DNA from: an uncultured Thermotogae bacterium
Lineage (GTDB): Bacteria > Bipolaricaulota > Bipolaricaulia > UBA7950 > UBA9294
DNA: 45,015 bases
Assembly: GCA_964568045.1 (NCBI GenBank)
Contig: CAZMOL010000003.1
Location: forward strand, 1-45,015
Reading direction: 5' to 3'
Position numbers and translations under genes: made by a program. Below, piece after piece: positions 9,944 to 28,279 of this stretch (within the stretch, counting starts at the first letter, position 1; each line of letters starts with the position of its first letter). Under the pieces are notes generated by a model. It saw only the letters and a list, made by a program, of their open reading frames with translations, ran no database searches and was not told where the DNA came from.

Positions 9944-11011
9944 ATGGCAGATATTAGTATCAGCAAGCGACTCCAACAGGCCAAAGCAGAGTATGCGGAT
10001 ATCGAGTTAAAGCTCGCTGACCCCAAGATCATCTCAGGCTCTTCCTATCGCGACTTAACCCAGAAATACGCCCGCTTGCGCCAGGTCATCCGCATGGGCG
10101 AGCAGTGGGAACAGCTCCGTTCCTCCATCGCAGAGGAAGAGCAGCTGTGGGAGAGCGAGGAAGAACTCCGCAGCGAGATTGAGGAAACGCTGGAAGAGGA
10201 CCGCCGCCAGTTGGAGGAGATCGAGCGCAGATTCCAACGGCTCATCGTTCCCCCTGATCCCAAGGACCGCAAGAACGCGATCGTGGAGATTCGTGCTGGA
10301 ACCGGCGGTGATGAATCGAGCCTGTTTGCCGCCGACCTGTTTCGCATGTACACACGCTACGCTGATGCAAACCAACAAAAGGTCTCTCTCATAGACAGCC
10401 ATCCGACCCCGCTTGGCGGATTTAAGCAGATCGTGTTCGCAGTAGAGGGTAAAGATGCCTATGGCCGCCTGCGATACGAATCGGGTGTCCATCGAGTGCA
10501 GCGCGTTCCCGAGACCGAGTCCGCCGGACGAATCCACACTTCAGCCGCAACCGTCGTCGTCCTGCCCGAGGCGGAGGAAGTGGAGATCACCATCGATCCA
10601 AAGGACCTGAGAATCGATACGTTCCGTTCCACCGGCCCGGGTGGCCAGAGCGTGAACACAACCGATTCTGCGGTACGGATAACCCACATTCCCACCGGTA
10701 CCGTCGTGAGCTGCCAGGACGAAAAATCGCAACACAAGAACAAAGCGCAAGCGCTGCGCGTTCTGCGTGCTCGGCTCAAGGATCGCTACGAAAAGGAGAA
10801 GGAAGCGGAGCTTACTGCCACGCGTCGACAGCAAATAGGCTCCGGTGATCGCAGTGAAAAGATCCGTACCTACAACTTCCCTCAGAACCGCGTGACCGAC
10901 CACCGGATAAACGTCAGTCTTCACAACCTTATGGAGATTTTAAATGGAGATCTGGGCGCTCTGGTCGATATGCTGCATGAAGAAGCGAATAAAGAAGAAT
11001 TCGCGGCCTGA
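9944..11011 (+). CDS. prfA: Peptide chain release factor 1
   Basis: GGQ motif (GPGGQSVN), RF1-type PxT (VQRVPETES), [14 protein letters not shown]. Confidence 0.97.
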
Positions 11012-11048
11012 AGATCTATTCCAGTCCTCATTTCAAGAAACGTAGGTC

Positions 11049-11077
11049 TTGACAGTCCTCCACACCACTGCTACCAT
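11049..11077 (+). promoter_or_regulatory. Sigma70-type promoter for tRNA-Ile
   Basis: TTGACA-17 bp-TACCAT with TGn extension, 12 bp upstream of the tRNA. Confidence 0.7.
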
Positions 11078-11089
11078 TACGACAGTTTT

Positions 11090-11163
11090 GGGTCTGTAGC
11101 TCAGCTGGTCAGAGCGCTCGCCTGATAAGCGGGAGGCCCCTGGTTCGAGTCCAGGCAGGCCCA
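11090..11163 (+). tRNA. tRNA-Ile (GAT), CCA not encoded
   Basis: Acceptor GGGTCTG/CAGGCCC, D-arm GCTC/GAGC, anticodon stem CTCGC/GCGGG with loop CTGATAA, T-arm CCTGG-TTCGAGT-CCAGG. Confidence 0.96.
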
Positions 11164-11169
11164 TGTTTC

Positions 11170-11197
11170 TTGACTGTCGCCTTTTGTAATGTATAAT
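11170..11197 (+). promoter_or_regulatory. Sigma70-type promoter for PC4-family gene
   Basis: TTGACT-16 bp-TATAAT. Confidence 0.6.
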
Positions 11198-11244
11198 ACC
11201 GTATCAGCTGTTATGAGAGATGCAAACTGTCAAAAGGAGGAGCT

Positions 11245-11511
11245 GTGGCAGAGAATGTACAACAAAGCGAAGAGCGTGTGGTGAAGACTATCGACAAGGG
11301 GCTCGGCGGTAGGATCTATGTTCGGCTTTCTCGCTTCCGCGAACGTGACTACCTGGATATTCGCAATTTCTACGAGACGGATGATGGAGAATGGAAGCCT
11401 ACTCGAAAAGGAATCGCCATTCCGGTTGAGCTTTTTGGAGAATTGATGGCAGCGCTCAACGAGGCCGAACCGCTGATCGCCGAACGTTCACAAGGAACAG
11501 CCACTTCGTAG
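11245..11511 (+). CDS. PC4/YdbC-family ssDNA-binding protein (transcriptional coactivator p15 fold)
   Basis: AGGAGG RBS; F....YLDIR.FY...GEWKPTRKGIAI motif. Confidence 0.85.
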   Translation: MAENVQQSEERVVKTIDKGLGGRIYVRLSRFRERDYLDIRNFYETDDGEWKPTRKGIAIPVELFGELMAALNEAEPLIAERSQGTATS

Positions 11512-11538
11512 TACGCTTGCTCCATAGTGGCGCCCCCC

Positions 11539-11567
11539 TTGACAAGTCGAAACTTTCTCACTATGAT
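11539..11567 (+). promoter_or_regulatory. Sigma70 promoter of the aromatic supraoperon
   Basis: TTGACA-17 bp-TATGAT; predicted transcription start ~11574. Confidence 0.75.
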
Positions 11568-11576
11568 GAAGACAAG

Positions 11577-11678
11577 ATGATAGGAGCAATAGGGAGTTCC
11601 ACGACTAAGAGAGCAAGAAACGTTTCCCTGAGTTCCTATTGGTATTTCTTTGGTGCTGGCTTTCCTGTCGCTACCTAG
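11577..11678 (+). CDS. Putative attenuator leader peptide, 33 aa, MIGAIGSSTTKRARNVSLSSYWYFFGAGFPVAT
   Basis: Short ORF immediately after the promoter with consecutive Tyr-Trp-Tyr-Phe-Phe codons (11637-11651), followed by attenuator hairpins. Confidence 0.8.
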   Translation: MIGAIGSSTTKRARNVSLSSYWYFFGAGFPVAT

Positions 11679-11721
11679 TCACTAGCTGGGTAACAAGAAC
11701 CGGAAAGCCAGGTGATGACTA
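11656..11721 (+). promoter_or_regulatory. Attenuator protector and antiterminator helices
   Basis: ctggctttcc (11656-65) pairs with ggaaagccag (11702-11); alternatively tagtcactagctgg (11676-89) pairs with ccaggtgatgacta (11708-21), 12/14 pairs including G-U, overlapping the terminator left arm. Confidence 0.7.
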
Positions 11722-11748
11722 CAGGCAATGCCTGTGGTCTTTCTTTTT
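11717..11748 (+). terminator. Intrinsic attenuator terminator upstream of aroH
   Basis: gactacaggc-aat-gcctgtggtc stem followed by tttcttttt. Confidence 0.85.
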
Positions 11749-11798
11749 GGGATGTGCAACGCGCTAACCCGAGCACAGCGAGGAGGTTATCAAAGCCG

Positions 11799-12191
11799 AT
11801 GAAACGAAGGACGACGATGCGGTGTTGCGGCATTCGCGGCGCCACTAGAGTGGACGCCAACGATTCGGATGCGATCATCCGCGCAACACGCGAGTTACTG
11901 GAGCGCATTGTCGCAGCGAATGACCTACAGGTTGAAGATGTGGCCAGCGTGCTGTTCACCGCCACACCTGATCTTGACGCAGCCTACCCAGCCCGCGCCG
12001 CACACGAGATGGGATGGGTAAACACCCCTCTTCTGTGTCTACAGGAGATGGTCGTAACAGACAGTCTGCCGCACTGCATCAGGGTGTTGGTCCTCTGGAA
12101 TACGACCCGGTGTTCCGAGCAAATCCAACACGTCTACCTCGGTGATGCCAGTGCGCTGCGTCCCGATCTGGTGAAGGAGGACAAGACATGA
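11799..12191 (+). CDS. aroH: Chorismate mutase, AroH class
   Basis: [40 protein letters not shown]; ATG 11799 after AGGAGGT (alternative 11817). Confidence 0.93.
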
Positions 12192-13066
12192 CCAAAGTAG
12201 CCTTCCAGGGCGTCTCCGGGGCCTACTCGGAGGAAGCCATCTGCCAGTTTTTTGGCTCGCAAGTGGCGCATCTACCCTGCAAGACGTTTGCGGATGCCTT
12301 CCACGCCGTGGAACGCGGCGAGGCCGAATTTGCGATGCTCCCCGTGGAAAACGCGGTCGCCGGCTCCGTGAATCAGTCCTACGAGCTGCTGATGGAGCAC
12401 GATCTGCGCATCTACGCCGAGGTCATCCTGCGGGTGCGACACATGCTGCTTTCCATCCCTGGTTCGGCTCTTTCCGAAGTGAAGCGCGTACGATCACACC
12501 CGCAGGCGTTGGCACAGTGCCAACGCTATCTCGCCAATCGCAGCTTGTCACCGCAGACTGCGATTGACACGGCGGCCAGTGCGCGCGATCTCGCCGCCAA
12601 TCCGGAGGCCGGCACAGCCGTCATCGCCAGTAGGTTAGCCGCCGAGCTGTACGGACTCGAAATCGTCGATGCGGGCATTGAGGACTACCCCTTCAACTAC
12701 ACTCGGTTCTTTGTACTCTCACTGAATGAGCCGACTCGGACACAGCGATCCAAGACGTCGCTTGTCTTCACCACCCCGCATCAGCCGGGCGCACTCTATG
12801 CGTGCATAGGAGAGCTGACCAAGCGGGGGGTCAATCTCACCAAGATCGAATCACGACCGCGTCTCAATCGACCCTGGCAGTACCTGTTCTATCTGGACTT
12901 TGAAGGACACTGTCAGGACCCGGAGTGCGAAGCGGCAATCATGGGCCTGCTTCGCCGCTCCTCGTTTGTCAAGCTGCTGGGATCCTATCCCGCGGCTACA
13001 ACGCCGATCATCGAGGAAGACACGGCTGAATTGGACGACCCCAAGGGTCAGGAGGTGGCCCAGTGA
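12188..13066 (+). CDS. pheA: Prephenate dehydratase with ACT domain
   Basis: [36 protein letters not shown]. Confidence 0.95.
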
Positions 13067-14076
13067 TGATCGTAATGAAGAAGGACGCAACCACTTCCCA
13101 AGTGGCCAACGTCACTGCCAGAATCGAGCAGATGGGTTGTCAAGCTCACATTTCCCAGGGTGAAGAACGGACCATCATCGGCATCATCGGGAGCGGCCGC
13201 CCCCTCGATCACGAGCTGATCGAGCAGTTGGACGGCGTAGAGAAGACGATGCCCATCTTGAAACCGTTCAAGCGTGCCAGCCGGGAATTCCACCCTCAAG
13301 ACACCGTTGTTTCGACCAACGGCGTTACGATCGGCGGCCGTCAGCTGGTGGTCATCGCCGGTCCCTGTGCCGTGGAGAGCCTCGATCAAATGTTGGAAAT
13401 CGCCCACGCGGTGAAAGAACAAGGCGCGCAACTGCTGCGCGGCGGCGCGTTCAAGCCGCGTACGTCTCCGTACAGCTTCCAAGGACTGGGCGAAGAAGGA
13501 TTGCGCATCCTGGGGAAGGTGCGCCAAGACACGGGACTCGGAGTGGTCACCGAGGTCATGGACCCCGAGATGGTGCCGCTTGTCACGACGTACGCCGATG
13601 TTCTCCAGGTCGGTGCACGCAACATGCAGAACTTCGCGCTGTTGCACGCGATCGGCAAGGCCCATCGGCCGGTCCTACTGAAGCGAGGAATGATGTCGAC
13701 GATGGAGGAGTTGCTGATGGCCGCGGAATACATCCTCTCGCACGGAAACGATAGGATCATCCTGTGCGAACGGGGAATCCGAACATTCGAGACCTACACC
13801 CGCAACACGCTCGACATCGCCGCCGTCCCTCTACTCAAGCAACTCAGCCACCTGCCCGTCATCGTGGACCCGAGTCACGGAACCGGAAAGTGGGAACTGG
13901 TGGAACCGGTCTCCCGGGCAGCGATCGCTGCCGGCGCCGATGGATTGATTGTGGAGGTGCACACGCATCCCGAAGCGGCCCTATCCGACGGAGCGCAGTC
14001 CCTCAAGCCAGACCGCTTTGCCACAATGATGCAGAACCTCGGTCGCATCGCGGAGGCGGTGGGAAGGACGCTGTGA
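13063..14076 (+). CDS. aroF: DAHP synthase, type I-beta, with N-terminal regulatory domain
   Basis: [46 protein letters not shown]. Confidence 0.95.
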
Positions 14077-14933
14077 ACCGACTGGCGGACGCACAAATCA
14101 CAATTATTGGCCTTGGACTGATGGGAGGCTCGCTGGCCGGAGCCCTCCGCGGACGTTGCCGCACAGTGATCGGCGTGGCGCGCCGTGCGGAGACGGTTGA
14201 GACAGCACTCGAATGCGGCCTGATCGATCGAGGAACGACCGATGTGTCAAGTGGTGTTCACCAAGCAGACATCGTCGTTCTGGCCACACCGGTACGCGTC
14301 ATCCTGCAGCAATTGGCCGACATTGGGCCGCTGTTGCCCCAAGGAAGCTTGGTGATGGATCTCGGCAGCACCAAGACACAAATCGTCAGCGCGATGGCAC
14401 GCCTGCCCGACCACGTCCAGCCGCTGGGTGGACATCCGATGTGTGGTAGGGAGGTCTCGGGAATCGAGGAGGCAGATCCAGCACTCTACCGGGGCTGTAC
14501 CTTCATCCTCACACCGCTTGAACGCACCTCCGCGGCGGCTCTGGCGCTGGGCTGTACCCTCGCCGAAGCAATCGGCGCGCATCCACTCGTGCTCGAACCG
14601 GGACGGCAGGACTTCCTGGCCGGCACACTCAGCCACCTGCCGTACCTGTTGGCCTGTGCGCTCGTCGGCACGGCCGATGCCACGACCTCCGCCGACCCGG
14701 CGGCGTGGGAGATCGTTGCGAGCGGGTTCCGCGACACGTCGCGGCTTGCAGGCAGTGACGTGTCAATGATGATCGACATCCTCCTGACCAACCGCGAAGA
14801 GATTCTCAAAGCCCTCGCGAACTACCAGGACCAACTGCACGGTTTGGCCCGTCTTGTGAAGACGAGTGACGAAGACAGAATGCGGGCAGTGCTCGGCACG
14901 TTTCGGGACAAACGAAGGGAGATGTTCCCGTGA
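14073..14933 (+). CDS. tyrA: Prephenate/arogenate dehydrogenase (TyrA family)
   Basis: GTG overlaps the aroF stop; [34 protein letters not shown]. Confidence 0.92.
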
Positions 14934-16219
14934 GCCGATTGACCGTGTCCCCCAACGCAGCGTTGCGCGGGTGCGTCACCGTACCCGGCGACAAATCGAT
15001 CTCCCATCGGGCGTTGCTGCTCGGAGCGTTGGCCGAAGGATCCAGCCACATCACCGGCTTTCTCCCCTCCGGTGACTGCCGCGCCACCCTGGGCTGCCTT
15101 CGAGTACTCGGTGTCAGAATTAAAACCCACAACGCGACCACACTGACCGTGCACGGTCGTGGGCCGGGAGGCCTTGAGGCGCCGGCGGCACCGCTTGACT
15201 GCGTCCGTTCGGGGACGACGATGCGGCTGTTGACCGGCGTGTTGGCAGGACAACCGTTCACAAGCACGCTCAGAGGAGACCAGCAGCTGCTCCTCCGGCC
15301 GATGGGCCGTGTCGTCGAGCCGCTGCGTCGTATGGGAGCCAACATCGAGGACACCGCCGGTCACGCTCCCCTTATCGTGAACGGCCGCCCGCTGCACGGC
15401 ACAATCCATGAACTCAGCGTAGCCAGTGCTCAGGTGAAGAGCGCAATCCTGTTGGCCGGGCTGACCGCCGAGGGCTCAACGAGCGTTTGTCAGCCAGGAC
15501 CGGCACGTGATCACACCGAACGGATGCTCGCTGCAATGGGTGCCGACATCCGGATCTCGGGTCTCACGGTGACACTGCACCCGGCTTCGCGCCTTGCTCC
15601 CCTCTCCCTGACGATCCCCGGCGACGTCTCCTCGGCCGCGTTTCTCCTGGTCGCCGCAGCGCTTGTTCCCGACTCGGCGGTCACTGTCACTGGAGTCGGG
15701 ATCAACCCCACTCGGACCGGGTTGCTCGATGTTCTGCGCGCGATGGGAACCGATATATCCGTGAGCAACCAGCACAGCGCGTGCGGGGAAACAGTGGGCG
15801 ACGTCACGACACGTACTTCCGACCTGCGGGGAGTGACGATCGAAGGCGACACGGTGGTGCGGATGATCGACGAGTTTCCGGTCTTGGCCGTGGCGGCCAC
15901 ACAGGCACACGGCACGACCGTGGTCCGTGATGCGGCCGAGCTACGGGTAAAGGAGACCGACCGTATCGAGGCGGTGGTACAGGAATTGGGCGCCCTGGGA
16001 GCGCACATCGAGCCGCGAGAAGATGGGTTTGTGGTGGAAGGCCCCACGCCGCTTCGCGGCGGGAGGGCCCACTCCCATGGGGATCACCGGCTGGCAATGG
16101 CATTGGCCGTTGCCGGATTGGTCGCCGATGGAGACGTGATCATTCACGATGTGGATTGCGTCGAGGATTCCTTCCCCGGCTTTGTGGAGCGGATGCAGGC
16201 GATAGGAGCTAGAGTGTGA
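14930..16219 (+). CDS. aroA: EPSP synthase
   Basis: PGDKSISHRA, SAQVKSA, RDHTERML, IDEFP, ELRVKETDRI, DHRLAM. Confidence 0.97.
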   Translation: MSRLTVSPNAALRGCVTVPGDKSISHRALLLGALAEGSSHITGFLPSGDCRATLGCLRVLGVRIKTHNATTLTVHGRGPGGLEAPAAPLDCVRSGTTMRLLTGVLAGQPFTSTLRGDQQLLLRPMGRVVEPLRRMGANIEDTAGHAPLIVNGRPLHGTIHELSVASAQVKSAILLAGLTAEGSTSVCQPGPARDHTERMLAAMGADIRISGLTVTLHPASRLAPLSLTIPGDVSSAAFLLVAAALVPDSAVTVTGVGINPTRTGLLDVLRAMGTDISVSNQHSACGETVGDVTTRTSDLRGVTIEGDTVVRMIDEFPVLAVAATQAHGTTVVRDAAELRVKETDRIEAVVQELGALGAHIEPREDGFVVEGPTPLRGGRAHSHGDHRLAMALAVAGLVADGDVIIHDVDCVEDSFPGFVERMQAIGARV

Positions 16220-17109
16220 TTGATGGAAAGACACAGCTTGTTGGGTTAATCGGCTGGCCTGTGGCGCACAGCCTGTCCCCGGTGATGCACAACGCCGCGT
16301 TCGACGCCCTTGGACTCAACTGGCGCTACGTTCCTCTACCCGTACCGCCGGACCGGCTTGAAACATCCGTGCGCGGTCTGGCCGCATTGGGCTTCCGGGG
16401 GGTCAACGTCACCGTGCCACATAAGCAGGCCGCAATACCCCTGCTTGATTCCGTGGCTCCCGACGCTTCTTTATTTGGGGCGGTCAATACGCTCGTGATC
16501 GATCGTGCCCAAAGTGGGGAAGTGACGATCAGTGGCTACAACACAGATCACAGAGGCTTTGTCACATCGCTGCGGCAGAGCGGCTTCGACCCTGAAGGGA
16601 AAAAGGCCGTCGTTTTGGGCGCTGGTGGTGGAGGACGCGCGGTGGTCTTCGGCCTGCTTGAGGCAGAGGCTGTGGAGATTGTGGTGCTCGACAGTGACCC
16701 TGAGAAGGCGCAGGCGCTCATCGATGATTTGTGCGGTCAAGAGTCGCGCCGACTGCGCACGAGACCGCTGACGCAAGAGGCGTTGTTCGAATCCACCCAC
16801 GCTGCTGACCTGTTTGTTCACGCGACTCCCGTCGGGATGTGGCCTCACACCGAGGGATGCATCTGGCCCGAGGAGCTGCCTTTCCCTGCCCATCTCATCG
16901 CTTTTGACCTCGTCTATAACCCGTTGCAAACGAACTTCCTGCGGCGTGCCCGGGAGGCAGGAGCGCCTACGATTGACGGACTGGGCATGCTGGTGGCCCA
17001 GGGAGCACTGTCGTTTGAGCTGTGGACAGGAGAAACGGCGCCGATTGAGGTCATGCGCACCGCCGGCGAACGGGCACTTCAAGAAAGATCTCACCAGGAG
17101 CGCCCATGA
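16216..17109 (+). CDS. aroE: Shikimate dehydrogenase
   Basis: G.PVAHSLSP.MHN, NVTVPHK, GAVNT, NTD, GAGG, DLVYNP, GLGMLVAQG. Confidence 0.95.
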   Translation: MIDGKTQLVGLIGWPVAHSLSPVMHNAAFDALGLNWRYVPLPVPPDRLETSVRGLAALGFRGVNVTVPHKQAAIPLLDSVAPDASLFGAVNTLVIDRAQSGEVTISGYNTDHRGFVTSLRQSGFDPEGKKAVVLGAGGGGRAVVFGLLEAEAVEIVVLDSDPEKAQALIDDLCGQESRRLRTRPLTQEALFESTHAADLFVHATPVGMWPHTEGCIWPEELPFPAHLIAFDLVYNPLQTNFLRRAREAGAPTIDGLGMLVAQGALSFELWTGETAPIEVMRTAGERALQERSHQERP

Positions 17110-17183
17110 GATACCGAGTATCGGTCACGTATATCGTAGCATTCGTGGCTTGGCAATCATCCCTGTGGTGGCGTGGCTTCTAG
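17106..17183 (+). CDS. trpL: Putative internal trp leader peptide, 25 aa, MRYRVSVTYIVAFVAWQSSLWWRGF
   Basis: ATG overlaps the aroE TGA (ATGA), CAGGAG RBS 5 bp upstream, Trp at codon 16 and tandem Trp at 21-22 (17166-71), ends 52 bp before trpE. Confidence 0.75.
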   Translation: MRYRVSVTYIVAFVAWQSSLWWRGF

Positions 17184-17235
17184 CTACGTCCTTAGTAGTT
17201 CAGCTGCCACCACCAAATTGCTCAGGAGGTCAACC

Positions 17236-18777
17236 ATGTATTACCCCACAGTGGATGAAATGAAAGAACTGGCCGAGAAAGGGAATCTGATCCCAGTCTA
17301 CAGAGAAATGCCCGCGGATCTGGATACACCTGTCTCGGTGTACCTCAAGCTGCGACAGGAGAGCCCGTCGTTCTTGCTCGAGAGCGTGGAAAAGGGCGAG
17401 CAGCTTGGCCGCTATTCGTTCCTCGGCGTCGAGCCGGCCGGAGTTCTCACTGCCTCTTCCGGGAAGGTCACTTGGAAAGCAGGTGATTCCGTCAGACAGC
17501 TCGATCCGCCCGGCGGTGATCCCCTGTCAGCAATGAAGCAGCTTCTCGCGCAGTACCGACCGGTACCGGTGGAGGGGTTGCCCGGATTCTGCGGAGGGTT
17601 CGTCGGCTACTTGAGCTACGACGCTGTTCGCTTCTTTGAACGGGCGCCGCTTGCTCCCCAATCGGATCTGGATCTTCCCGATGCCGTTTTCATGTTGGCC
17701 GATAGCCTGGTCATATACGATCACGTCAAGCACCGTTCACTGGTAGTGGTCAATGCGCACGTTGACGGCGACGTGGAAGCAGCCTACGAGGAAGCGACGA
17801 GCAAGATCGCGTCGATCATCGCACGGTTGGGGCATGCGCTGCCGACGGCCTCTAAGCGCAGTGATAAGAAGGCGCCCAGTAGCGATACAAAGTGGAGGAC
17901 CAACTGCGATCAAGAACGTTTCGAGGCGGCGGTACTCAGGGCAAAGGAGTACATCGTCGCCGGCGATATCTTCCAGGTGGTTCCCTCACAGCGGCTCACT
18001 CATCGCACGACCGTCGATCCGTTCGCCATCTATCGGAGCCTGCGCATGCTGAACCCTTCTCCCTACATGTTCTATCTCGATCTTCCGGGCCAGTTGCGCG
18101 TGATCGGCTCCTCGCCCGAGATGCTCGTCCGGTTGACGGGCCGGCTGGCGGAGGTGAGACCGATCGCCGGCACTCGGCCACGGGGTGCGACCCACAGCGA
18201 GGATGAGGCGCTGGCCGAGGAACTGCTAGCCGACCCCAAGGAACGTGCCGAGCACGTCATGCTGGTCGACCTGGGGAGAAACGACCTGGGCCGCGTCTGT
18301 CGGTACGGATCGGTGTGTGTCCCTGAGATGATGGTCATCGAGCGCTACTCGCACGTCATGCACATCGTCTCCGGCGTGCAAGGCGAGCTTGATCCCGATG
18401 TTGACGCATTTGACCTCATGCGCGCGGTGTTTCCCGCAGGAACTGTCTCTGGAGCACCGAAGGTGCGAGCGATGGAGATCATCGCCGAATTGGAGGGCGA
18501 ACGGCGAGGGCCGTACGCAGGAGGGGTCGGCTACTTCAGCTACTCGGGAGACATGGATACCTGCATCACCATTCGTACTATCGTGATGCAGGGTGATGCG
18601 GTTCACGTCCAGGCCGGAGCCGGCATCGTCGCCGATTCCGATCCCACGCGCGAATACCACGAAACGCTGCACAAAGCGGAGGCATTGGCCGAGGCGGTAC
18701 GTGTTGCGGAGAGAGACGAGATCGCGTTGGAAGCAGGCACGAAACACAAAGCGCACGCAAAAGGTGGTGCCGCATGA
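17236..18777 (+). CDS. trpE: Anthranilate synthase component I
   Basis: ATG 17236 after AGGAGGT; DTP, FLLES (Trp-feedback motif), NPSPYM, PIAGT, EHVMLVDLGRND, GAPKVRAM. Confidence 0.96.
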   Translation: MYYPTVDEMKELAEKGNLIPVYREMPADLDTPVSVYLKLRQESPSFLLESVEKGEQLGRYSFLGVEPAGVLTASSGKVTWKAGDSVRQLDPPGGDPLSAMKQLLAQYRPVPVEGLPGFCGGFVGYLSYDAVRFFERAPLAPQSDLDLPDAVFMLADSLVIYDHVKHRSLVVVNAHVDGDVEAAYEEATSKIASIIARLGHALPTASKRSDKKAPSSDTKWRTNCDQERFEAAVLRAKEYIVAGDIFQVVPSQRLTHRTTVDPFAIYRSLRMLNPSPYMFYLDLPGQLRVIGSSPEMLVRLTGRLAEVRPIAGTRPRGATHSEDEALAEELLADPKERAEHVMLVDLGRNDLGRVCRYGSVCVPEMMVIERYSHVMHIVSGVQGELDPDVDAFDLMRAVFPAGTVSGAPKVRAMEIIAELEGERRGPYAGGVGYFSYSGDMDTCITIRTIVMQGDAVHVQAGAGIVADSDPTREYHETLHKAEALAEAVRVAERDEIALEAGTKHKAHAKGGAA

Positions 18778-19370
18778 TCGTCGTCATCGACAATTACGAT
18801 TCTTTCACCTACAACTTGGTGCAGTACTTGGGTGAGTTGGGCGCTGAGGTCACGGTCCATCGCAACGACCGGGTAACCATCGATGAATTGGAGACCCTTG
18901 ATCCATCTCACATCGTCATCTCGCCCGGCCCGGGCCGTCCGGAAGACAGCGGTATCTCGCCTGAGGTGATCCGTCACTTCTACAAGGCAGTCCCAATCCT
19001 TGGTGTGTGTTTGGGTCACCAAGCGATCGCGTACGCTTTCGACGGAACCGTCGGCCAGGCACCCACGTTGATGCACGGTAAGACCTCAAAGATCTACCAC
19101 GCCTCGCAGGGGCTCTTCGCGAGTTTCCCCAGTCCGTTCACCGCCACCCGCTATCACTCCCTCATTGTGGAGGAGCCGTTACCAGCGGAGCTTGAAGTGA
19201 CCGCATTCACTACAGCGGGTGAGGTAATGGCGTTGCAGCACCGCCAGCTTCCCGTGTACGGTGTTCAGTTTCATCCTGAATCGATTCTGTCTCCCGACGG
19301 CAAACGACTCTTGAGCCATTTCCTCGCTGCAACCTGCAGTGAACAGAAGGAGTCGGCTTATGGACATTAG
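18774..19370 (+). CDS. trpG: Anthranilate synthase component II (glutamine amidotransferase)
   Basis: IDNYDSFTYNL, SPGPG, GVCLGHQ, RYHSL, QFHPES. Confidence 0.95.
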   Translation: MIVVIDNYDSFTYNLVQYLGELGAEVTVHRNDRVTIDELETLDPSHIVISPGPGRPEDSGISPEVIRHFYKAVPILGVCLGHQAIAYAFDGTVGQAPTLMHGKTSKIYHASQGLFASFPSPFTATRYHSLIVEEPLPAELEVTAFTTAGEVMALQHRQLPVYGVQFHPESILSPDGKRLLSHFLAATCSEQKESAYGH

Positions 19371-20388
19371 AAAAGCACTTGCTCTGCTCATCGAAGGACA
19401 GAATCTGTCTGGGGCCGATGCGGAAGCAGTGATGGAGCAGATCATGACCGGGCAGGCGACCCCCGCTCAAATCGGTGGGCTGTTAACTGCGCTGCGAGCA
19501 AAGAAAGAGACCACAGAAGAGATCACCGGGTTTGCCCGCGCGATGCGACGCAATGCAGTCGCCGTATCGTCACATCGCACCCCGTTGGTCGATGTCTGCG
19601 GCACCGGAGGCGATGGTAGCGGCACGTTCAACATCTCCACTGCTGCCGCTCTTGTCATCGCCGGGGCGGGCCTGGCAGTGGCCAAGCACGGAAATCGTTC
19701 AGTATCCAGCAAGTGCGGAAGTGCGGACGTACTGGAGGCACTGGGAGTTCATTTGACCCTCGCACCGAAGGTCATCGGCGCCTGTATCGATGAGGTAGGA
19801 ATCGGTTTTCTCTACGCGCCGCAGCTCCATCCGGCGATGAAGCACGCCATCGGCCCGCGGCGGGAGATGGGGATACGCACAGTGTTCAACATACTGGGGC
19901 CGCTCACCAATCCGGCCGGAGCGCGCGTGCAGGTGCTCGGGGTATACGACGCCGCACTTACTGAGGTGATGGCACAGGTGCTGCACGCGCTGGGGTGCGA
20001 GGCTGCGTTCGTCGTGCACGGGGGCGGTGGGTTGGACGAGCTGTCAACCATAGGACCGAACAAGATGACCCAGCTGCGTGCCGGAGAGATCCGCACCTTT
20101 ACGTTGGACCCTCAATCCCTTGGATTGCCGCAGGCCACGCTGTCCGATCTGAGGGGAGACGACGCCGGGTCGAACGCCGCCATCATCGGGGACATCCTGA
20201 CCGGTACTCCAGGCCCGAGGAGGGACGTGGTGTTGCTCAATGCCGCCGCCTGTCTGGTTGCAGGCAAGAAAGCAGCCGACCTTGCCGCTGGTTTGACCCT
20301 GGCGGCGGAAAGCATCGACTCGGGAGCGGCAAGAGCCACACTCGACGCTCTGATCGCCTTTTCCAGGAAACGAGGGAGTGCGGCATGA
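19360..20388 (+). CDS. trpD: Anthranilate phosphoribosyltransferase
   Basis: D.CGTGGDG, KHGNR, GSAD.LEALG, RTVFN.LGPL.NP. Confidence 0.96.
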   Translation: MDIRKALALLIEGQNLSGADAEAVMEQIMTGQATPAQIGGLLTALRAKKETTEEITGFARAMRRNAVAVSSHRTPLVDVCGTGGDGSGTFNISTAAALVIAGAGLAVAKHGNRSVSSKCGSADVLEALGVHLTLAPKVIGACIDEVGIGFLYAPQLHPAMKHAIGPRREMGIRTVFNILGPLTNPAGARVQVLGVYDAALTEVMAQVLHALGCEAAFVVHGGGGLDELSTIGPNKMTQLRAGEIRTFTLDPQSLGLPQATLSDLRGDDAGSNAAIIGDILTGTPGPRRDVVLLNAAACLVAGKKAADLAAGLTLAAESIDSGAARATLDALIAFSRKRGSAA

Positions 20389-21182
20389 TCCTCGATGAAA
20401 TCCTGGACCACAAGCAAGCAGAAGTGGCGCTGGCGCGTCAGCAGGTCTCACTGCAGGTACTGAAAGGCCGGACAGCGGCTCAGACCCCCGCGCTCGACTT
20501 CGCCGCTGCCGCGCGGGGGAATGGGGTCTGCCTGATCGCAGAAGTGAAGAAGGCGTCTCCCTCCAAAGGGGTGATGTGCGCTGAGCTGGACCCCGTGGCT
20601 ATCGCCCTCACCTACGCGTCGCACGGAGCGGCTGCCATCTCCGTGCTCACCGACCTGCGTTTCTTCCAAGGCAACCTTCAAAGCCTAACCGCAATTAAGG
20701 AAGCGCTTCAGAAGGAGGGCCGGGTGGTCCCACTATTGCGCAAGGACTTCATCATCGACCCGTATCAGGTCTACGAAAGCCGTGCCGCCGGCGCTGATGC
20801 CCTGCTTCTCATCGCAGCCGCACTCGCCGACGAAGTGCTTGCCGAGCTGCTGGCGTTGACACACAATCTGGGAATGACTGCTCTGGTGGAGGTTCACGAC
20901 GAACAGGAGGTCGGACGAGTGCTCCCACTTCGACCACGCGTTGTGGGGATCAACAACCGCGATCTGTGTGACTTCAGTGTCGACCTAGCCCGCTTTGAAC
21001 GACTCCGCTCCCAACTTCCAGACGATGTCACCGCCGTGGCGGAAAGCGGCATTCAGACTGCCGCCGACGTTCGCCGGTTGGCGAGGATGGGCGCTGATGC
21101 CGTGCTGGTCGGTGAGGCGCTGGTAACGGCACCTGACGTTGGAACAAAGGTTCGGGAACTCGTAGCGGGCGGAGTGTCATGA
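20385..21182 (+). CDS. trpC: Indole-3-glycerol phosphate synthase
   Basis: ATG overlaps the trpD stop; [35 protein letters not shown]. Confidence 0.96.
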
Positions 21183-23026
21183 TCCGGGTGAAGATCTGTG
21201 GAATCACGAACCCAGAGGATGCCCTGGCCGCTGCGGGAGCAGGAGCAGACCTGCTTGGCTTCGTGTTCCATCCACCCAGTCCGCGCTGCGTGGAACCCGT
21301 CCGCGCCGGAGAGGTCATCGATGTCGTCCGTCACGCCTTTCCCACTGTGGGCTTCGTCGGGGTGTTTGTAGATGAGACATTGGGAAACGTGCAGCAGACC
21401 GTATCCCATTGTGGGCTTGACTACGTGCAGCTCCACGGCAGTGAACCCCCGGAGATGATAGACGCCCTGATGGATCGTGGCACAAAGGTCATCAAGGCTT
21501 TCCGCGTCCGTGATAGGGCCTCTCTGTCCGGGATCGAGCGCTACCGTGCGACGGTCTATCTCCTCGATGCCTTTGTTCCCGAGCAGATGGGTGGAACCGG
21601 ACGCAGTTTCGACTGGACGCTGGCTGCAGAAGCGAAGGAATACGGGCCGATCCTGTTGGCCGGCGGGTTGACTCCAGAAAACGTGCACCGGGCGATCTGC
21701 GCCGTCCACCCTTGGGGGGTGGATGTCTCAACCGGCATCGAGACAACACCGGGGCGCAAGGATCACGCTCGACTGCGGCATTTCATCGCAGCAGCAGAGG
21801 GCCTCGCTCCTGCGAAGAAGCAGACGCCACAACGAGGCCCCGATGCCCGCGGCTATTTCGGAGCCTTCGGCGGAAAGTTCGTCCCGGAAACGCTGATGCC
21901 CGCCCTCGAGGAACTGGAGCGCGCGTACCACGAGGCCCGTTCGAATTCAGCGTTCCAAAACGAACTGGAGAGCCTGCTGCGGCAGTACGCGGGTAGGCCG
22001 ACGCCACTGTATCTTGCCAAGAGACTTACCGCCCACTGCGGAGGGGCACGAATGTATCTCAAGCGGGAGGACCTCGCCCACACCGGCGCCCACAAGATCA
22101 ACAACACTTTGGGCCAGGCACTCTTGGCCCAACGGATGGGAAAACACCGATTGGTCGCGGAAACCGGTGCCGGCCAACACGGGGTCGCTACTGCCACGGC
22201 TGCGGCCCTACTGGACATGGAGTGCATCGTATATATGGGTACCCAAGACATGGCCCGTCAGGCTCCCAATGTCGAACGCATGCGGCTGTTGGGCGCCGAC
22301 GTGCGTCGGGTGAACACGGGCAGCCGCACCCTCAAAGACGCGATCAACGAGGCCATCCGCGACTGGGTAACCAACGTGCGATCGACCTACTACCTGCTGG
22401 GCTCCGTCCTGGGACCGCACCCGTATCCCATGATCGTGCGCGACTTCCAGACCGTCATCGGCGAGGAGGTCCGCGAACAGATCCTGGCTGCAGAAGGGCG
22501 CTTGCCCGATTGCTTGGTTGCGTGCGTCGGCGGCGGATCAAACGCCATTGGGATCTTCTATCCCTTCTTGGGCGATGCGGTGGCAATGGTGGGTGTGGAG
22601 GCCGGTGGCCGCGGAATCGAAACCGGGGAGCATGCGGCGCGGTTCTCCGACCCCGACACAGGGCGCATCGGCGTGCTACACGGAACCCGTTCCTACGTGC
22701 TGCAAGACAACGACGGACAAATCCTGACCACCCATTCTGTCTCCGCTGGGCTTGACTATCCGGCAGTCGGTCCTGAGCTCAGCCACCTGAGAGACTCGGC
22801 CCGGGTGGAGTACACCACCGCCTCCGACGAAGAGGCACTCGATGCGTTTGACCTTCTCTGCAGGATGGAAGGGATCATCCCAGCCCTGGAATCGGCGCAC
22901 GCCCTGGCCGAGGCCGTAAAACGGGCCTCCAAGATGTCGTCTCGTCACATCATCATCGTGAACCTGTCGGGAAGAGGGGACAAGGATCTCGACACCGTGA
23001 CCGAGATAAGGAAGGCGGCTCAATGA
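21179..23026 (+). CDS. trpF-trpB: Fused phosphoribosylanthranilate isomerase / tryptophan synthase beta chain
   Basis: N-terminal VKICGIT...LAGGL.PEN...GVDVSTGIE; then [37 protein letters not shown], all in one 615-aa frame. Confidence 0.93.
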
Positions 23027-23880
23027 CTGCTACAAGCGGCATTCAACGAATCGCTGCTGCGTTTGAGCGGGCGCGAACTGAAGAACGTGCGGCTCTGATT
23101 CCGTATGTGGCCCTGGGCCATCCTACACCGGAGATGTCGCTCAAGCTGGCCGCGGCGGCTATCGAAGGTGGAGCTGACTTGCTGGAACTCGGCGTGCCCT
23201 TCTCTGACCCCCTGGCCGATGGCCCTGTCATCCAGCGCGCTACACAAACGGCCCTGCAACAGGGCGTCACGGTACTCCGTTGTTTAGAGTTGGCACAGAC
23301 GCTACGGCAGCGAAAGCCCGAGATTCCCCTCATCTTCATGGGGTACTACAATCCCATTCTTACCTACGGCGAAGACGCCTTCTGCCGCGCCTGCGATGTG
23401 GCGGGAGTGGACGGCCTGATCGTACCGGATCTGCCACCGGAAGAAGGAGAAGAGCTGGAAGCCGCGTGTCAGGTTCATGGCCTGGCGCTTGTCTACCTGT
23501 TGTCCCCAACCAGCACTCCGCAGCGCGTTCACCTCGTTACGCAGCACTCTCAGGGGTTCGTTTACCTCGTATCGCTGGCGGGGGTCACCGGACCCCGAGA
23601 TCGTTTACCCGCCGATCTACCCGCGTTTGTGAAGCAAGTGCGGATGGCAACGGACAAACCCCTGGCAGTTGGCTTTGGGATCGCCTCTGCCCAACAAGCC
23701 GGGCGGGTCGCCGCCCTAGCAGACGGCGTCATCGTTGGCAGTGCGTTGGTTCGCCTGGCTGAAGAGGTAAGTGCTGAATCCAAGGTAAGATCCTTCGTGG
23801 CCGGCTTGCGCCAGGCAATGACCACCCCAAAGGTCAGCCTCGGTTCCAGCCGTGATGAGCAATCGAGGAGGAAGACCTGA
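23023..23880 (+). CDS. trpA: Tryptophan synthase alpha chain
   Basis: [41 protein letters not shown]. Confidence 0.97.
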
Positions 23881-25016
23881 TGCTTCGTTTTCTGACCGCC
23901 GGCGAATCGCACGGTCCCTGCCTAATCGCCATCGTGGAAGGGATGCCTGCCGGCCTGATGGTGGATGTGGAAGCGATCCATCACGATCTGGCCCGCCGCC
24001 AGCGCGGCTACGGCCGCGGAGAAAGGATGCAAATCGAGCAGGATCGAGTGGAACTGCTGGGTGGGGTAATCGCCGGCAAGACAACCGGTGCACCAATGGC
24101 ACTGCGCATCGAGAACCGCGACTGGGCCAATTGGCGTGATCGTTGGGATAGCGGTGATCTGCCCAAGCTGACTGTGCCCCGTCCCGGCCACGCTGACTAT
24201 GCCGGCGCGGTCAAGTACGGTCTGGATGATGCCCGCTCGATTCTCGAACGGGCCAGCGCGCGGGAGACCGCGGCCAGGGTGGCAGTCGGTTCACTGGCCA
24301 AGCAGCTGCACGCCGCGTTTGACATCGCCGTCGGCAGCTACGTCGCACAGATCGGTGACGTCCTCGCCACGATCCCCAACCTTCTGCCAGAGGAATTGTG
24401 GAAGCTCGCCGAGGCAAATGATGTGCGTTGTCCCGACGAGGAGGCTGCCGTCCAAATGCGGTCGGCGATTGATGCGGCACGCGAAGCCGGTGACTCACTC
24501 GGCGGCGTGTTTGTTGTCATCGCGACTGGAGTACCGGTCGGACTGGGCAGTCACGTGCACTGGGATCGCCGACTCGACGGCAGACTCGCCTCAGCGATGA
24601 TGTCCATCCCCGCGATTAAGGGCGTGGAGATCGGTCCGGCTTTCGCAAACGCCCGTCGTCCGGGTACACAGGTGCACGACGAACTCCTTCCAAACGGCAA
24701 GGGCGGTGTGACACACGGTACAAATCGAGCCGGTGGCGTCGAAGGCGGGATGAGCAACGGCGCACCGATTGTCATTCGAGCAGCGATGAAGCCGATCCCG
24801 ACCACGCTCACACCACTTCGCTCGGTCGATCTCGCCACCAATGAGCCGGCACAGACCCAGTACCAGCGCTCCGACGTCTGTGCCGTGCCCGCTGCATCAG
24901 TGGTCGGTGAGGCGATGGTCGCCTGGGTGCTGGCCGATGCCCTGGTGGAGAAGCTGGGCGGCGACAGCCTGGCTGAGATGAAGGCCCATTGGAACAGCTG
25001 GAGACAGCATGGGTGA
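23880..25016 (+). CDS. aroC: Chorismate synthase
   Basis: TAGESHG, RPGHAD, ERASARETAARV, KPIPT, RSDVCAVP. Confidence 0.97.
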   Translation: MLRFLTAGESHGPCLIAIVEGMPAGLMVDVEAIHHDLARRQRGYGRGERMQIEQDRVELLGGVIAGKTTGAPMALRIENRDWANWRDRWDSGDLPKLTVPRPGHADYAGAVKYGLDDARSILERASARETAARVAVGSLAKQLHAAFDIAVGSYVAQIGDVLATIPNLLPEELWKLAEANDVRCPDEEAAVQMRSAIDAAREAGDSLGGVFVVIATGVPVGLGSHVHWDRRLDGRLASAMMSIPAIKGVEIGPAFANARRPGTQVHDELLPNGKGGVTHGTNRAGGVEGGMSNGAPIVIRAAMKPIPTTLTPLRSVDLATNEPAQTQYQRSDVCAVPAASVVGEAMVAWVLADALVEKLGGDSLAEMKAHWNSWRQHG

Positions 25017-26607
25017 CAGCGGAAACGTCATCATCACCGGGTTCATGGGCACAGGCAAAACGGCGGTGGGCCGGAAGGTTGCGCGGCTGCTGGGCCGTCC
25101 GTTCGTGGACATGGACGCAGAGATCAGGAAGCGAGCGGGCAAATCGATCCACGACATCTTCGCCGAAGACGGAGAGTCCACGTTCCGAGAAATGGAAACC
25201 GCCCTGTGCGAGGAATTGTGCGCACAACGGGAATTGGTGATCGCCACCGGCGGCGGTACGCTGGTCGATCCCACCAATCGGGAGCGGATGATGTTAAGCG
25301 GAACTGTCGTCTGTCTGAGCTGCAACGTCGATGAGATTGCTCGCCGCGTCAGCAGAAACCCACATCGGCCGTTACTCGACGTGGCCGACCCCCCCGCCGA
25401 GATCGAGCGATTGTTGGCGAAAAGACACGCGGCCTACACTGCCATTCCTTGGCAGATCGAGGCCAGTGGCCTCTCCATAGAGGACGTGGCCGCACGCGTG
25501 ATCGAAATGGCCGGCGTCATCACCCTTCCGGTTCACCACCCCGATGGCGAGTATCCCGTTCACATCGGCAACGACCTGCTGTCGCACATCGGCGGAGCGC
25601 TGCACGCCAGCGGTGTAGTTGAAGGCACTCGCGTCGCCGTGGTGTCGAATCCAGTTGTCGGTCCGCTCTGCAGTGTGAAGGTCGAGGAAGCCTTGCGATC
25701 GGCAGAATTTCAACCCTTCGCCTGCTCCATCCCCGATGGTGAGCAGCACAAAACGCTCACCGCCGTCGCCGGTCTCTACGATCGGTTCCTCAAACGGGGA
25801 CTTGACCGCACCGGTGTTGTGTTGGCACTCGGGGGTGGGGTAACCGGCGATGTCGTAGGCTTTGCCGCAGCAACCTACATGCGCGGTGTCCGTCTCGTTC
25901 AAGTGCCGACCACGCTTCTGGCAATGGTTGACGCCAGTGTGGGCGGCAAGACCGGTGTCGACCTTCCTCAAGGAAAGAACTTGATCGGCACATTCAAGCA
26001 ACCAGTCTTGGTGGTCATCGATCCGTCCGTACTGGCAACGCTTCCCGACGAAGAGATGCGCTGTGGCCTGGCCGAGGTCATCAAACACGGGGTGATCGGT
26101 GATCCGGACCTCTTTGCGGAGCTGGAGGCTGGTGAAGCTGAGCTTCCTTCGTGGTGGAGTCAACAAGGGGCAAACCGCATTGCCCAAGCACTGCGAGTCA
26201 AGATCGGCGTGGTCGAGGAGGACCCATTCGAGAAAGGCCGCCGTGCCGTGCTCAACCTCGGTCACACCGTGGGCCACGGACTGGAGCGGTTGAGTGACTT
26301 CAACATGCGTCACGGCGAAGCGGTGAGCATCGGAATGGCAGTTGTAGCACGGATTGCCGCCGAGCTGGATCGGGCCGAACAGTCGCTCGTCGAGAGAATC
26401 GAGGCGATACTGACGGCCTGGGAGCTGCCGGTCCGATGCCCTCCGGTTGATGCAGAAGCCATCTGGTCAGCAATGACCCACGACAAGAAGAAGCGCGGCA
26501 ATGCGCTTCGTTGGGTACTACCTCGTACGATCGGCGAAGTGGAGATAGTCGAAGACGTACCCCCTTCCCTGGTAAAATCCGTACTACGCAGCCTAGGCGC
26601 GAGGTGA
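25009..26607 (+). CDS. aroK-aroB: Fused shikimate kinase / 3-dehydroquinate synthase
   Basis: [21 protein letters not shown]; then [40 protein letters not shown]. Confidence 0.95.
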
Positions 26608-26612
26608 AACAA

Positions 26613-27077
26613 ATGACTGACAACAGTCTCAAGGTATTGGTGCTGCACGGCCCCAATCTCAATCTGCTTGGCCAAAGGGAGCCGCAGCTCTACGGCCACA
26701 TGACGCTTGGAGAGATCAACGCGGCGCTGCGTAACGCCGCTGTCGAACACAAGGCGGAGCTTCGCATTGTGCAATCCAACCACGAGGGCGCGCTGATCGA
26801 TGCCCTGCATGAAGCGATGGCTTGGGCCGACGGTGTCCTCATCAATCCCGGCGCCTACACTCATACGAGCATCGCCCTGCGGGACGCCATCGCCGCTGTG
26901 GGACTCCCCGCCGTGGAGATCCACCTATCGAACATCCACGCCCGCGAGCCATTCCGCCGCCGCTCGCTCATCGCGCCGGTCTGTGTTGGACAGATTATTG
27001 GATTTGGCTGGCACAGTTACCTGCTCGGACTCACTGCACTGCTCGATCATTTGACGGACAAGGAGGAATCAACGTGA
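26613..27077 (+). CDS. aroQ: Type II 3-dehydroquinate dehydratase
   Basis: [41 protein letters not shown]. Confidence 0.96.
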
Positions 27078-28279
27078 AATGCGCCAAACGGCTGTCCAAC
27101 GTCCCGTCCTATCCCTTCGCCCGTTGGGCAACGCACGTCAAAGCGGCCCAAGACAAGGGATTGGAGGTCATTCGCTTGGACATGGGAAACCCCGACATGC
27201 CGCCGTCCGAGGAGGTCATCGCGGCAATGTGTCAATCTGCGCATCGCCCCGATCACCACGGCTATCCCGGCTTCCGCGGAATCCCTGCGCTGCGCGAGGC
27301 AGTCGCGGACTACTACCAGCGACGGTTCGGCGTTGTGCTCGATCCGGAGACCCAGGTTGTGCCGCTTCTCGGTTCCAAAGAGGGCATCGTCAATATGGCC
27401 CTGGCGTGTCTTGATCCCGGCGACGTGGCACTGGTACCCGATCCCGGCTACGCGCCCTATACCATGGGCACAATCCTGTCCGGCGCCACGGTCAACACCT
27501 TCCTCCTGCAACAAGAGCGGGGGTTCCTGCCGGATCTGGATTCCATCCCAACCGACGTCGCCGATCGAGCGGTGTTGATGTGGCTGAACTATCCGAACAA
27601 CCCCACCGGCGCCACGGCGAATCTTGATTTCTTTTCCCAGGCGGTCGAGTTTGCCCGTAGGCATAGGCTGCTGCTGTGCCACGACGCGCCGTACAGCGAC
27701 GTCACTTACAGCGGCTACGTCGCGTCGAGCCTGTTGCAGGTTCCCGGCGCTACTGAGGTCGCGGTGGAACTCAATTCCCTGTCCAAGACCTTCAACATGG
27801 CCGGCTGGCGTGTGGGAATGGCCGTTGGCAATGCGGAGGCACTGGCGTTGCTCGCCCGTGTCAAATCAAACGTCGATTCGGGCATCTTCCGCCCGCTGCA
27901 GGAGGCGGCGGTGTGTGCCCTGTCCGCAACACCGGAGTCGATCTCGGCACGCAACGCAATCTACCGCGAGCGGATGGAGCTTGTGGTAGAAGGCCTAAAG
28001 GCGATCGGCATCGATGCACCACTTCCACGAGCGACGCTCTACCTTTGGGCGAAAATTCCATCGAGCTGGACCTCGGAAGCCTTCGCGCTCTCTTTGCTCA
28101 ACGAAACCGGCATCTCCGTTGCGCCCGGCTCGTTCTTCGGCCCCGCCGGCGAAGGCTACATCCGGGTCTCCGTCACCGCGTCGACGGAGAAGGTTCAAGA
28201 AGCGAGCAAGCGACTTCAAAGCTGCGCGAAGGAGTGGATCGCGAAGGGCTCGAAACAGGGGACGACAGCAAACAGTTGA
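27074..28279 (+). CDS. PLP-dependent class I/II aminotransferase, probably the terminal aromatic aminotransferase
   Basis: GTG after AGGAGG overlaps the aroQ stop; [36 protein letters not shown]. Confidence 0.85.

Follow-up and report, generated by a model that had tools for sequence, protein, structure and literature searches.

A predicted leader-peptide attenuator with tyrosine, tryptophan and phenylalanine codons ahead of an aromatic amino acid operon, and the family of modular leaders to which it belongs

Leader-peptide attenuation is a textbook mechanism, in which the ribosome on a short upstream reading frame decides whether the genes behind it are transcribed. The window analyzed here, a stretch of 45,015 nucleotides (nt) on contig CAZMOL010000003.1 of assembly GCA_964568045.1, comes from an uncultured Thermotogae bacterium that GTDB places in the Bipolaricaulota, and an initial annotation of its forward strand proposed such an attenuator at 11539–11798, directly ahead of a chorismate mutase gene (aroH). 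Codons for Tyr, Trp and Phe stand side by side in the proposed leader, which raises the question of whether one leader peptide can sense three end products on behalf of a whole branched pathway, and how the position of the ribosome would then be conveyed to the RNA polymerase. Based on comparison with related genomes, ribosome-mediated transcription attenuation sensing Phe, Tyr and Trp for one transcription unit is the probable function of this locus. Judged from sequence, the window leader is also one copy of a modular scaffold that is reused with other codon runs in this lineage, apparently Candidatus Bipolaricaulota.

The promoter named in the initial annotation, TTGACA (11539–11544) and TATGAT (11562–11567) separated by a 17-nt spacer, agrees with the consensus at 11 of 12 positions and is the only promoter-like site that a promoter scan found on the + strand between 11500 and 31000. 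The leader open reading frame (ORF), MIGAIGSSTTKRARNVSLSSYWYFFGAGFPVAT, was likewise present as described, extending over 33 codons from the ATG at 11577 to the TAG at 11676–11678, with the five consecutive aromatic codons TAT TGG TAT TTC TTT (Tyr-Trp-Tyr-Phe-Phe) in frame at 11637–11651. The program-made ORF list holds this frame only as a TTG-started ORF of 53 codons (11517–11678). The ATG lies 9 nt past the –10 hexamer, and if transcription starts 6–7 nt past that hexamer, the 5′ untranslated region would be only about 2–3 nt long. A start codon so near the promoter leaves no room for a Shine-Dalgarno site.

Behind the leader lies a block of overlapping or closely spaced ORFs with Pfam matches (11799–28279, + strand), which begins with aroH (11799–12191) and continues with pheA, DAHP synthase, tyrA, aroA, aroE, trpE, trpG, trpD, trpC, a trpF-trpB fusion, trpA, aroC, an aroK-aroB fusion, and an aminotransferase. 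No internal promoter-like site was found on the + strand within 11799–28279, nor up to 31000, and the next strong + strand terminator behind the leader terminator (T, described below) in the scan of 11500–31000 is at 30329. Given a single promoter and one gene block, one leader precedes the genes for all three aromatic amino acids, including a trp block, which is the whole-pathway scope initially put forward. The trpF-trpB fusion (21179–23026) joins a PRAI to a PALP domain, and the aroK-aroB fusion (25009–26607) joins shikimate kinase to dehydroquinate synthase; a dehydroquinase gene was not seen within the block. Between the aminotransferase and the terminator at 30329 stand two SPFH/Band 7 genes (28376–30243) in the same orientation, which may share the transcript.

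The same arrangement recurs in relatives of this bacterium. A search of 41 relatives' genomes found chorismate mutase in 11, and at 10 of the 11 loci it is preceded by the same promoter, a leader ORF with a run of Phe, Tyr and Trp codons, and the hairpins P1 and T, the eleventh locus being cut by a contig end; the predicted layout is thus conserved upstream of orthologous clusters. A covariance model (R1), built from P1 and T only (alignment A1) and excluding the regulatory codons, matched 63 of 74 genomes of the window's family, with up to six matches per genome, and it also matched the window's own genome at three places. When a sample of the phylum was scanned, the model matched 44 of 54 genomes of this family and one of four in the sister family, and only four of 92, weakly, in other families. 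An exact-pattern scan with one genome per species returned 93 stretches, mostly from Candidatus Bipolaricaulota or Acetothermia; the remainder consisted of some labeled “uncultured Thermotogae” and about 15 from unrelated taxa, which are to be expected as chance matches. This leader family is apparently undescribed so far.

Altogether, 98 places were inspected (35 matches in the best loci, 60 lower-scoring matches, and the three in the own genome), of which 96 carry a leader ORF of 26–55 codons (median 31) and the other two are cut by contig ends. The order of elements in the scaffold is a P0 hairpin, the codon run, a spacer of 5–6 nt, the P1 hairpin, a linker of 4–8 nt, and an invariant terminator. 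The start codon is ATG in 94 of the 96 leaders and lies 6–11 nt (mode 9) past a TAnnnT –10 box in 95, and a –35-like hexamer together with a –10 box stands ahead of 94. Such spacing implies 5′ untranslated regions of probably 0–4 nt and supports the suggestion that translation in the window is nearly leaderless.

If these ORFs are sensors, their codon runs should follow the genes behind them, and they do. Gene classes were defined by clustering of the downstream genes and named from Pfam. At the 24 places ahead of chorismate mutase, all 22 readable leaders (hereafter aro leaders) have Phe/Tyr/Trp runs at the same place, ending in a TTT codon in 20 of them. The class of DAHP synthase that carries an FXD domain and has trpE-trpG behind it shows a WWW leader; homoserine dehydrogenase (8 members) has TTT(T) runs of threonine; a Cys/Met pyridoxal phosphate (PLP) enzyme (4) has MMM runs; and a TGS/tRNA_SAD protein (3) has GVGTT runs. 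Among binding proteins, the ABC_sub_bind class (14) carries runs of the RWYWF or FYWYWF type, the Peripla_BP_6 class (21) carries mixed hydrophobic runs or GMMM, and SBP_bac_5 (2) carries LYL(N/L)WW, while a LysW-like class (3) has no clear run. This correspondence is the strongest argument that ribosomes read the leader ORFs as sensors, and the leader ORF of the window is accordingly predicted to be translated.

The two other members in the own genome belong to such classes. The leader at C1:49363–49455 (– strand) ends in MMMS and adjoins a Cys/Met-metabolism PLP enzyme and an aspartokinase-like ORF; methionine genes are normally under S-adenosylmethionine riboswitches or repressors, and a ribosomal attenuator with Met codons is unusual. 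The leader at C51:6352–6445 (+ strand) starts with GTG, is hydrophobic, ends in LCLMYWILFAPARS, and stands before a LivJ-like binding protein of the Peripla_BP_6 class. Related transporters in the relatives have other runs (FLVHFVIML, LVYWIMLF, and GMMM), which may predict their substrates.

The ORF and the terminator could also be read as a gene in its own right, for a small protein or for a stable small RNA, with aroH expressed from a promoter of its own. The terminated product, consisting of P0, P1 and T, would be a highly structured RNA of about 170 nt, and 50 nt separate the U tract from the aroH ATG. However, there is no promoter-like site between T and aroH or elsewhere on the + strand up to 31000, the leader peptides are not conserved between classes outside the run whereas the RNA helices covary, and in at least six gene classes the run differs according to what the downstream gene does. 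We therefore regard an independent small gene as very improbable.

Whether the three kinds of aromatic codons all count was judged from the operon content, which varies among relatives. For 22 genomes, the aro leader could be read and trpE was searched for; the gene was found in 10 of 12 with a Trp codon in that leader and in one of 10 without (Fisher p 0.0019, which is only a guide because the genomes are kin and incomplete). A looser version of this table also took in two genomes whose leaders do not stand before a confirmed aroH. The contrasts within genera weigh more than the p value. In one genus, G069 (FYWYYYF) has a trp block in its operon, and five FYYYF genomes have no trpE that could be found; in another, trpE is present in G008 (FYYWF) and was not found in G077 (FYYRF).

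The placement of the trp genes gives further detail. The trp block lies between aroE and aroC in the window (YWYFF), G013 (YYWF), and G069. No trpE was found in the genomes of G071, G067, G075 (all FYYYF), and G077, and their operons run aroH-pheA-DAHP synthase-tyrA-aroA-aroE-aroC-aroKB-aminotransferase without a trp block. The aro operons of G048 (FFWYYF), G014 (FFWHYF), and G055 (FFYYFW) likewise have no trp block; in these three genomes and in G020 and G054, trpE is located elsewhere, in a DAHP synthase-trpE-trpG unit that is preceded by a WWW leader. G070, with an FYYYF aro leader, has a separate WYW leader before trpE. The association of the Trp codon with trpE, as well as the trp block in the window's own operon, supports the proposal that the three amino acids are sensed together. 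At four loci (L017, L018, L026, and L039, in G020, G048, G014, and G054), the aro and WWW leaders are arranged back to back on opposite strands with about 290 nt between them and drive the aro-phe-tyr and DAHP synthase-trpE operons divergently.

The RNA of the leader appears to be strongly structured. The minimum-free-energy fold of 11574–11760 has –68.3 kcal/mol, compared to –52.3 ± 3.9 kcal/mol in shuffled sequences (z –4.08; none of 200 shuffles was as good), and consists of three hairpins, P0, P1, and T. P1 is the helix initially described as a protector, 11656–11665 with 11702–11711, and was recovered with all 10 base pairs. In the alignment of 94 family members used for the covariation statistics of P1 and T, both partners vary in nine of nine P1 pairs, the share of paired cells is 94.0%, and the covariation score was reached by none of 500 shuffles. 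Inside P1, a further hairpin (P2; 11672–11679 with 11685–11692) holds the stop codon and a CUAG motif. The 5′ hairpin P0 (11579–11640) pairs codons 2–4 (11579–11587) with 11632–11640, just before and into the codon run, and has an inner helix of 11590–11595 with 11625–11630 in the minimum-free-energy fold. Family-wide, the arm regions of P0 form duplexes of –22.5 kcal/mol versus –15.1 kcal/mol in shuffles (z –2.35). RNAalifold on the sequence-based alignment did not call P0, and for this reason it was also tested as a named structure, in the register of the window, where 64.9% of cells were paired and both partners vary in 10 of 15 pairs.

Downstream of P1, a short purine-rich linker (11712–11716) leads to the intrinsic terminator T (11717–11749), whose place and U tract were correctly given at the outset. 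Ten pairs (11717–11726 with 11730–11739) enclose an AAT loop and are followed by TTTCTTTTTG, and transcription is predicted to terminate there. The stem of T is G+C-rich, with 96.5% of cells paired in the 94 members, and its core sequence is nearly invariant. From the last P1 pair to the first invariant T pair, the linker measures 4–8 nt in all 94 members and 6–7 nt in 74 of them. Two ORFs overlap this region. One is the aroH frame, which continues without a stop back through the terminator as far as a GTG/ATG in the P1–T linker (159 codons; 11712–12191); the other begins at the ATG of the terminator loop, and its TGA overlaps the aroH ATG. A few relatives, but not most, have like features.

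A structure of this kind could alternatively act without translation, as a ligand-, tRNA- or protein-binding RNA (a riboswitch, a T-box-like element, or the target of an antiterminator protein). The ORF would then be incidental, and recognition would occur at the invariant terminator and at the interior of P1, which is rich in CUAG. Across paralogues and genera, the core of T hardly varies whereas P1 does, and of the copies of the T hairpin in the own genome, only those at the three attenuators have a T run behind them. CTAG outnumbers every other tetramer inside P1 (93 in 2,542 nt, with at least one in 67 of 95 leaders), at a density of 0.037 per nt versus 0.0011 per nt in the own genome. On the other hand, cmscan of 11000–12300 against Rfam (E ≤ 10) returned only tRNA-Ile and one weak unrelated plastid match, so that the leader region is neither a T-box nor a catalogued leader family. 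An untranslated RNA also cannot explain in-frame runs of 3–7 cognate codons, the promoter-adjacent start, and the stop at or after the foot of P1 in 96 of the 98 places. A binding RNA with an incidental ORF is therefore scarcely credible, although an extra factor could act besides the ribosome. With regard to CTAG itself, the own genome strongly avoids it (1,635 observed against about 5,630 expected from base composition, 0.29 of expectation), and it is the commonest tetramer inside P1 even where the leader stop codon is not TAG. TAG is the stop codon in 60 of 95 leaders versus 37% of the long ORFs in the genome.

The leader ORF, its codon run, the terminator, and the family thus support the architecture of a leader-peptide transcription attenuator. 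In such a system, transcription would start 2–3 nt before the AUG, and a ribosome would read the 33 leader codons with no Shine-Dalgarno site. As this ribosome moves over the Tyr-Trp-Tyr-Phe-Phe codons, its progress would report the charging of three tRNA species and decide whether T stops the RNA polymerase before aroH, and a shortage of any one of the three amino acids would very likely turn the whole pathway on.

How this decision may be made depends on the geometry between run and P1, which is nearly fixed. The spacer from run to P1 is 6 nt in 40 of 51 aromatic leaders, 5 nt in seven of 10 Met leaders, and 5 nt in five of 10 Thr leaders, and the stop codon falls between 5 nt upstream and 21 nt downstream of the first P1 pair; in no leader does it come earlier. 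Structures that stimulate frameshifting at a spacing of 5–9 nt behind the A-site codon sit intact at the entrance of the ribosome. By this measure, a spacer of 5–6 nt should keep P1 folded while the ribosome pauses on a regulatory codon, and this spacing may mean that intact P1 is the ON state. The Trp codons that track the pathway lie up to five codons before the end of the run; in the window, the Trp codon (11640–11642) is four codons from the end, so that a ribosome on it cannot touch P1. The initial annotation had a stall at any of the aromatic codons mask the protector arm, which does not agree with these distances, as only the last one or two codons could bring the ribosome into contact with P1.

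The classical scheme, which was also the one initially proposed, requires exactly this masking. A stalled ribosome would cover the 5′ arm of P1, and the freed segment 11676–11689 would pair with 11708–11721 and sequester the first 5 nt of the 5′ arm of T, whereas a ribosome at the UAG would cover 11676–11689 and let the terminator form. To our knowledge, all characterized leader-peptide attenuators work in this manner. In the window, the helix has 12 of 14 standard pairs and a duplex energy of –13.5 kcal/mol that none of 200 shuffles equaled, although the resulting p value is optimistic because the segments were picked with the sequence already in view. To become the minimum-energy fold, the helix needs 11652–11666 to be unavailable and the 3′ arm of T not yet to have been made, and it comes within 0.7–2.2 kcal/mol of the minimum if the RNA up to 11660–11663 is unavailable, again before the 3′ arm exists. 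Once the 3′ arm has been made, the terminator fold is better by 8.4–9.7 kcal/mol. The antiterminator is thus present in the window but not conserved: among the 22 aro leaders it attains p ≤ 0.05 only in the window itself, with –2.2 kcal/mol in the same-genus relative and a mean of –5.0 versus –4.4 kcal/mol in shuffles.

Other partners for the 5′ arm of T were not found either. Family-wide, its best duplex with the whole leader has –9.7 kcal/mol versus –10.2 kcal/mol in shuffles, and segment by segment no part of the leader is complementary to it beyond shuffles (z –0.18 to +0.67); the same complementarity tests recovered P0 and P1 as positive controls. A his-type exchange (B:C and D:E) is absent (z +0.27 and +0.24), and folds that stop before the 3′ arm of T show no common partner for its 5′ arm. 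Pairing of the 5′ arm does rise, as the classical scheme would have it, from a probability of 0.14 with P1 folded to 0.33–0.41 with at least 3 nt of the P1 5′ arm masked, but the native value of 0.40 after masking equals that of the shuffled control (0.40). The classical scheme thus has a physical basis in the window and falls short because conservation, the positions of the Trp and Tyr codons, and the spacing fail: P1 begins 6 nt past the run, and Trp codons track the trp genes from positions where the ribosome cannot reach P1. We consider it unlikely and rank it below the opposite direction.

In this opposite direction, which we prefer, a ribosome held on any codon of the run would stay ahead of P1, and folded P1 would mean read-through; a ribosome that runs on would melt P1 in order to reach the UAG inside it, and termination would be permitted. 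The 5–6-nt spacers, the position of the stop codon, the distant Trp codons, and the lack of a conserved antiterminator pairing among those searched for all speak for it. Nevertheless, we hold it only tentatively, at somewhat less than an even chance.

Several observations weigh against the attenuator as read here or against its preferred direction. P1 does not overlap T, so that base pairing gives no account of how folded P1 disables T, and the preferred direction needs a steric or polymerase-binding effect. The 5′ arm of T is freest when P1 is folded, from which simple folding predicts efficient termination in that very state. The minimum-energy folds, moreover, keep T whatever is masked: when the ribosome footprint was forced unpaired in 11 leaders, T was retained in 11 of 11 stall states, with one exception for a ribosome at the stop codon. 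We know of no leader-peptide attenuator without an antiterminator overlapping the terminator. Regarding the sensed amino acids, two genomes with a Trp codon have no trpE that was found (they are 79% and 88% complete), and all genomes compared are metagenome bins, 56–95% complete and mutually kin, so that counts overstate independence. Lastly, two true RNA libraries covered small shares of the stretch, the uncovered parts being uninformative, and placed a single contig on the leader. This contig (11534–11931), which is the sole cover within 11000–14000, can show neither ends nor levels, and may be DNA, passes through T and begins about 40 nt upstream of the predicted transcription start.

One way to reconcile the preferred direction with the lack of overlap is that P1 is itself an antiterminator that shares no nucleotide with T, which would make the leader a ribosome-controlled switch without alternative base pairing. 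A stalled ribosome would leave P1 folded 4–8 nt upstream of T, and folded P1 would block completion of the terminator hairpin at the RNA polymerase, either sterically or by binding to the polymerase. P1 could exert the block by itself, by way of its conserved interior with its many CUAG motifs, or by keeping the stalled ribosome tethered beside the polymerase, and a ribosome reaching the stop codon would melt P1 and restore termination. This more specific idea is possible but doubtful.

A few other interactions were considered. Extension of the T stem into the linker and the 3′ arm of P1 was rejected because a swap test showed no partner specificity (–7.94 native versus –8.09 swapped), as was a second ribosome reading through T from a start codon in the linker or loop, which is available in the window and a few others and, by eye, absent in most. 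Between the 3′ arms of P1 and T there is a weak enrichment in complementarity (z –0.36, with 18% below –1.64). The mRNA's 5′ end is complementary to the 3′ arm of T and the U tract to an extent that is not general (mean z –0.6; 12% at p ≤ 0.05). In some RWYWF and TTTT leaders (L034, L041, L072, and L085), the first 10–25 nt of the mRNA form such duplexes of –16.6 to –21.0 kcal/mol versus about –8 to –10 kcal/mol in shuffles, the two strongest (–21.0 and –20.1 kcal/mol) having 13–14 contiguous pairs.

Directly upstream of the leader region are two genes with promoter-like sites of their own. A lone tRNA-Ile(GAU) gene (11089–11164) has a site at 11049, and a gene for a small PC4-like protein (PF02229; 11245–11511) has one at 11170. 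The PC4-like gene also lies ahead of the leader in the same-genus relative.

Compared to trpL, pheL, and hisL of Escherichia coli, the window leader shares a short ORF in which cognate codons follow one another, placed ahead of a biosynthetic operon, as well as an upstream hairpin, a terminator before the first gene, and the position of the ribosome as sensor. It differs in that the start codon is beside the promoter with no Shine-Dalgarno site, the codons lie in a single-stranded gap between two hairpins rather than inside helix 1, one leader holds codons for three amino acids, and it matches no Rfam leader family; in the window's family as a whole, no conserved antiterminator overlapping the terminator was found. 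The aromatic supraoperon of Bacillus subtilis likewise joins common-pathway, trp, and tyr genes in one unit, with the TRAP attenuator before the trp genes, but there a Trp-binding protein senses a single amino acid, whereas in the window the sensor would be the ribosome.

Mixed aromatic leaders have a precedent. In Corynebacterium glutamicum, aroR, located upstream of aroF, is a Phe-Tyr-Phe leader that acts on a DAHP synthase operon by ribosome stalling (Neshat et al., 2014, as summarized in PMC11802643), so that the premise that classical aromatic leaders sense one amino acid does not hold in full, although in that summary only Phe limitation is reported to act. As described there, aroR has two amino acid types and no Trp, whereas the window leader has all three, with a Trp codon that tracks the trp genes, and belongs to a whole-pathway operon, a different scaffold, and another phylum. 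Leaderless leader peptides have been predicted in Deinococcus deserti (PMC4007540, in which Table S9 holds 14 Deinococcus leader peptides), and leaderless polycysteine short ORFs have been reported in mycobacteria (bioRxiv 10.1101/834739). As far as these sources present them, they resemble the window leader in having the AUG at or near the 5′ end and in the attenuation, predicted or shown, of amino acid or tRNA-synthetase genes; they appear there as individual leaders without an evident shared RNA scaffold, unlike the family described here. The D. deserti leaders are compared from the main text, and a mixed aromatic leader among them is possible. In the literature, we found no attenuators from Bipolaricaulota or Acetothermia and no mixed Phe/Tyr/Trp leader for a whole-pathway operon, in a search outside of which most subscription journals lie.

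If the three-amino-acid reading is correct, this locus would be a clear natural case of one leader peptide that integrates three end products for a whole branched pathway, and it comes with an evolutionary control, as the Trp codon tends to persist where the pathway supplies Trp synthesis and to give way to another codon elsewhere. Around it stands an apparently undescribed cis-regulatory family, in a candidate phylum without genetics, that would govern biosynthesis, uptake, and a tRNA-synthetase-like gene. Its role would parallel that of T-boxes in Firmicutes, with the ribosome as the sensor and with nearly leaderless leaders. The family fits the textbook three-helix exchange poorly in its fixed geometry, its invariant terminator, and the lack of a detected antiterminator; with these three misfits, a length of about 170 nt, a modular build, and many natural variants, the leaders may serve as a compact test bed for control of termination by ribosome position. 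Moreover, the codon runs could be used for annotating the substrates of uncharacterized transporters in these genomes. Should P1 indeed act as the antiterminator, the lineage would possess a cassette in which only the codons are exchanged.

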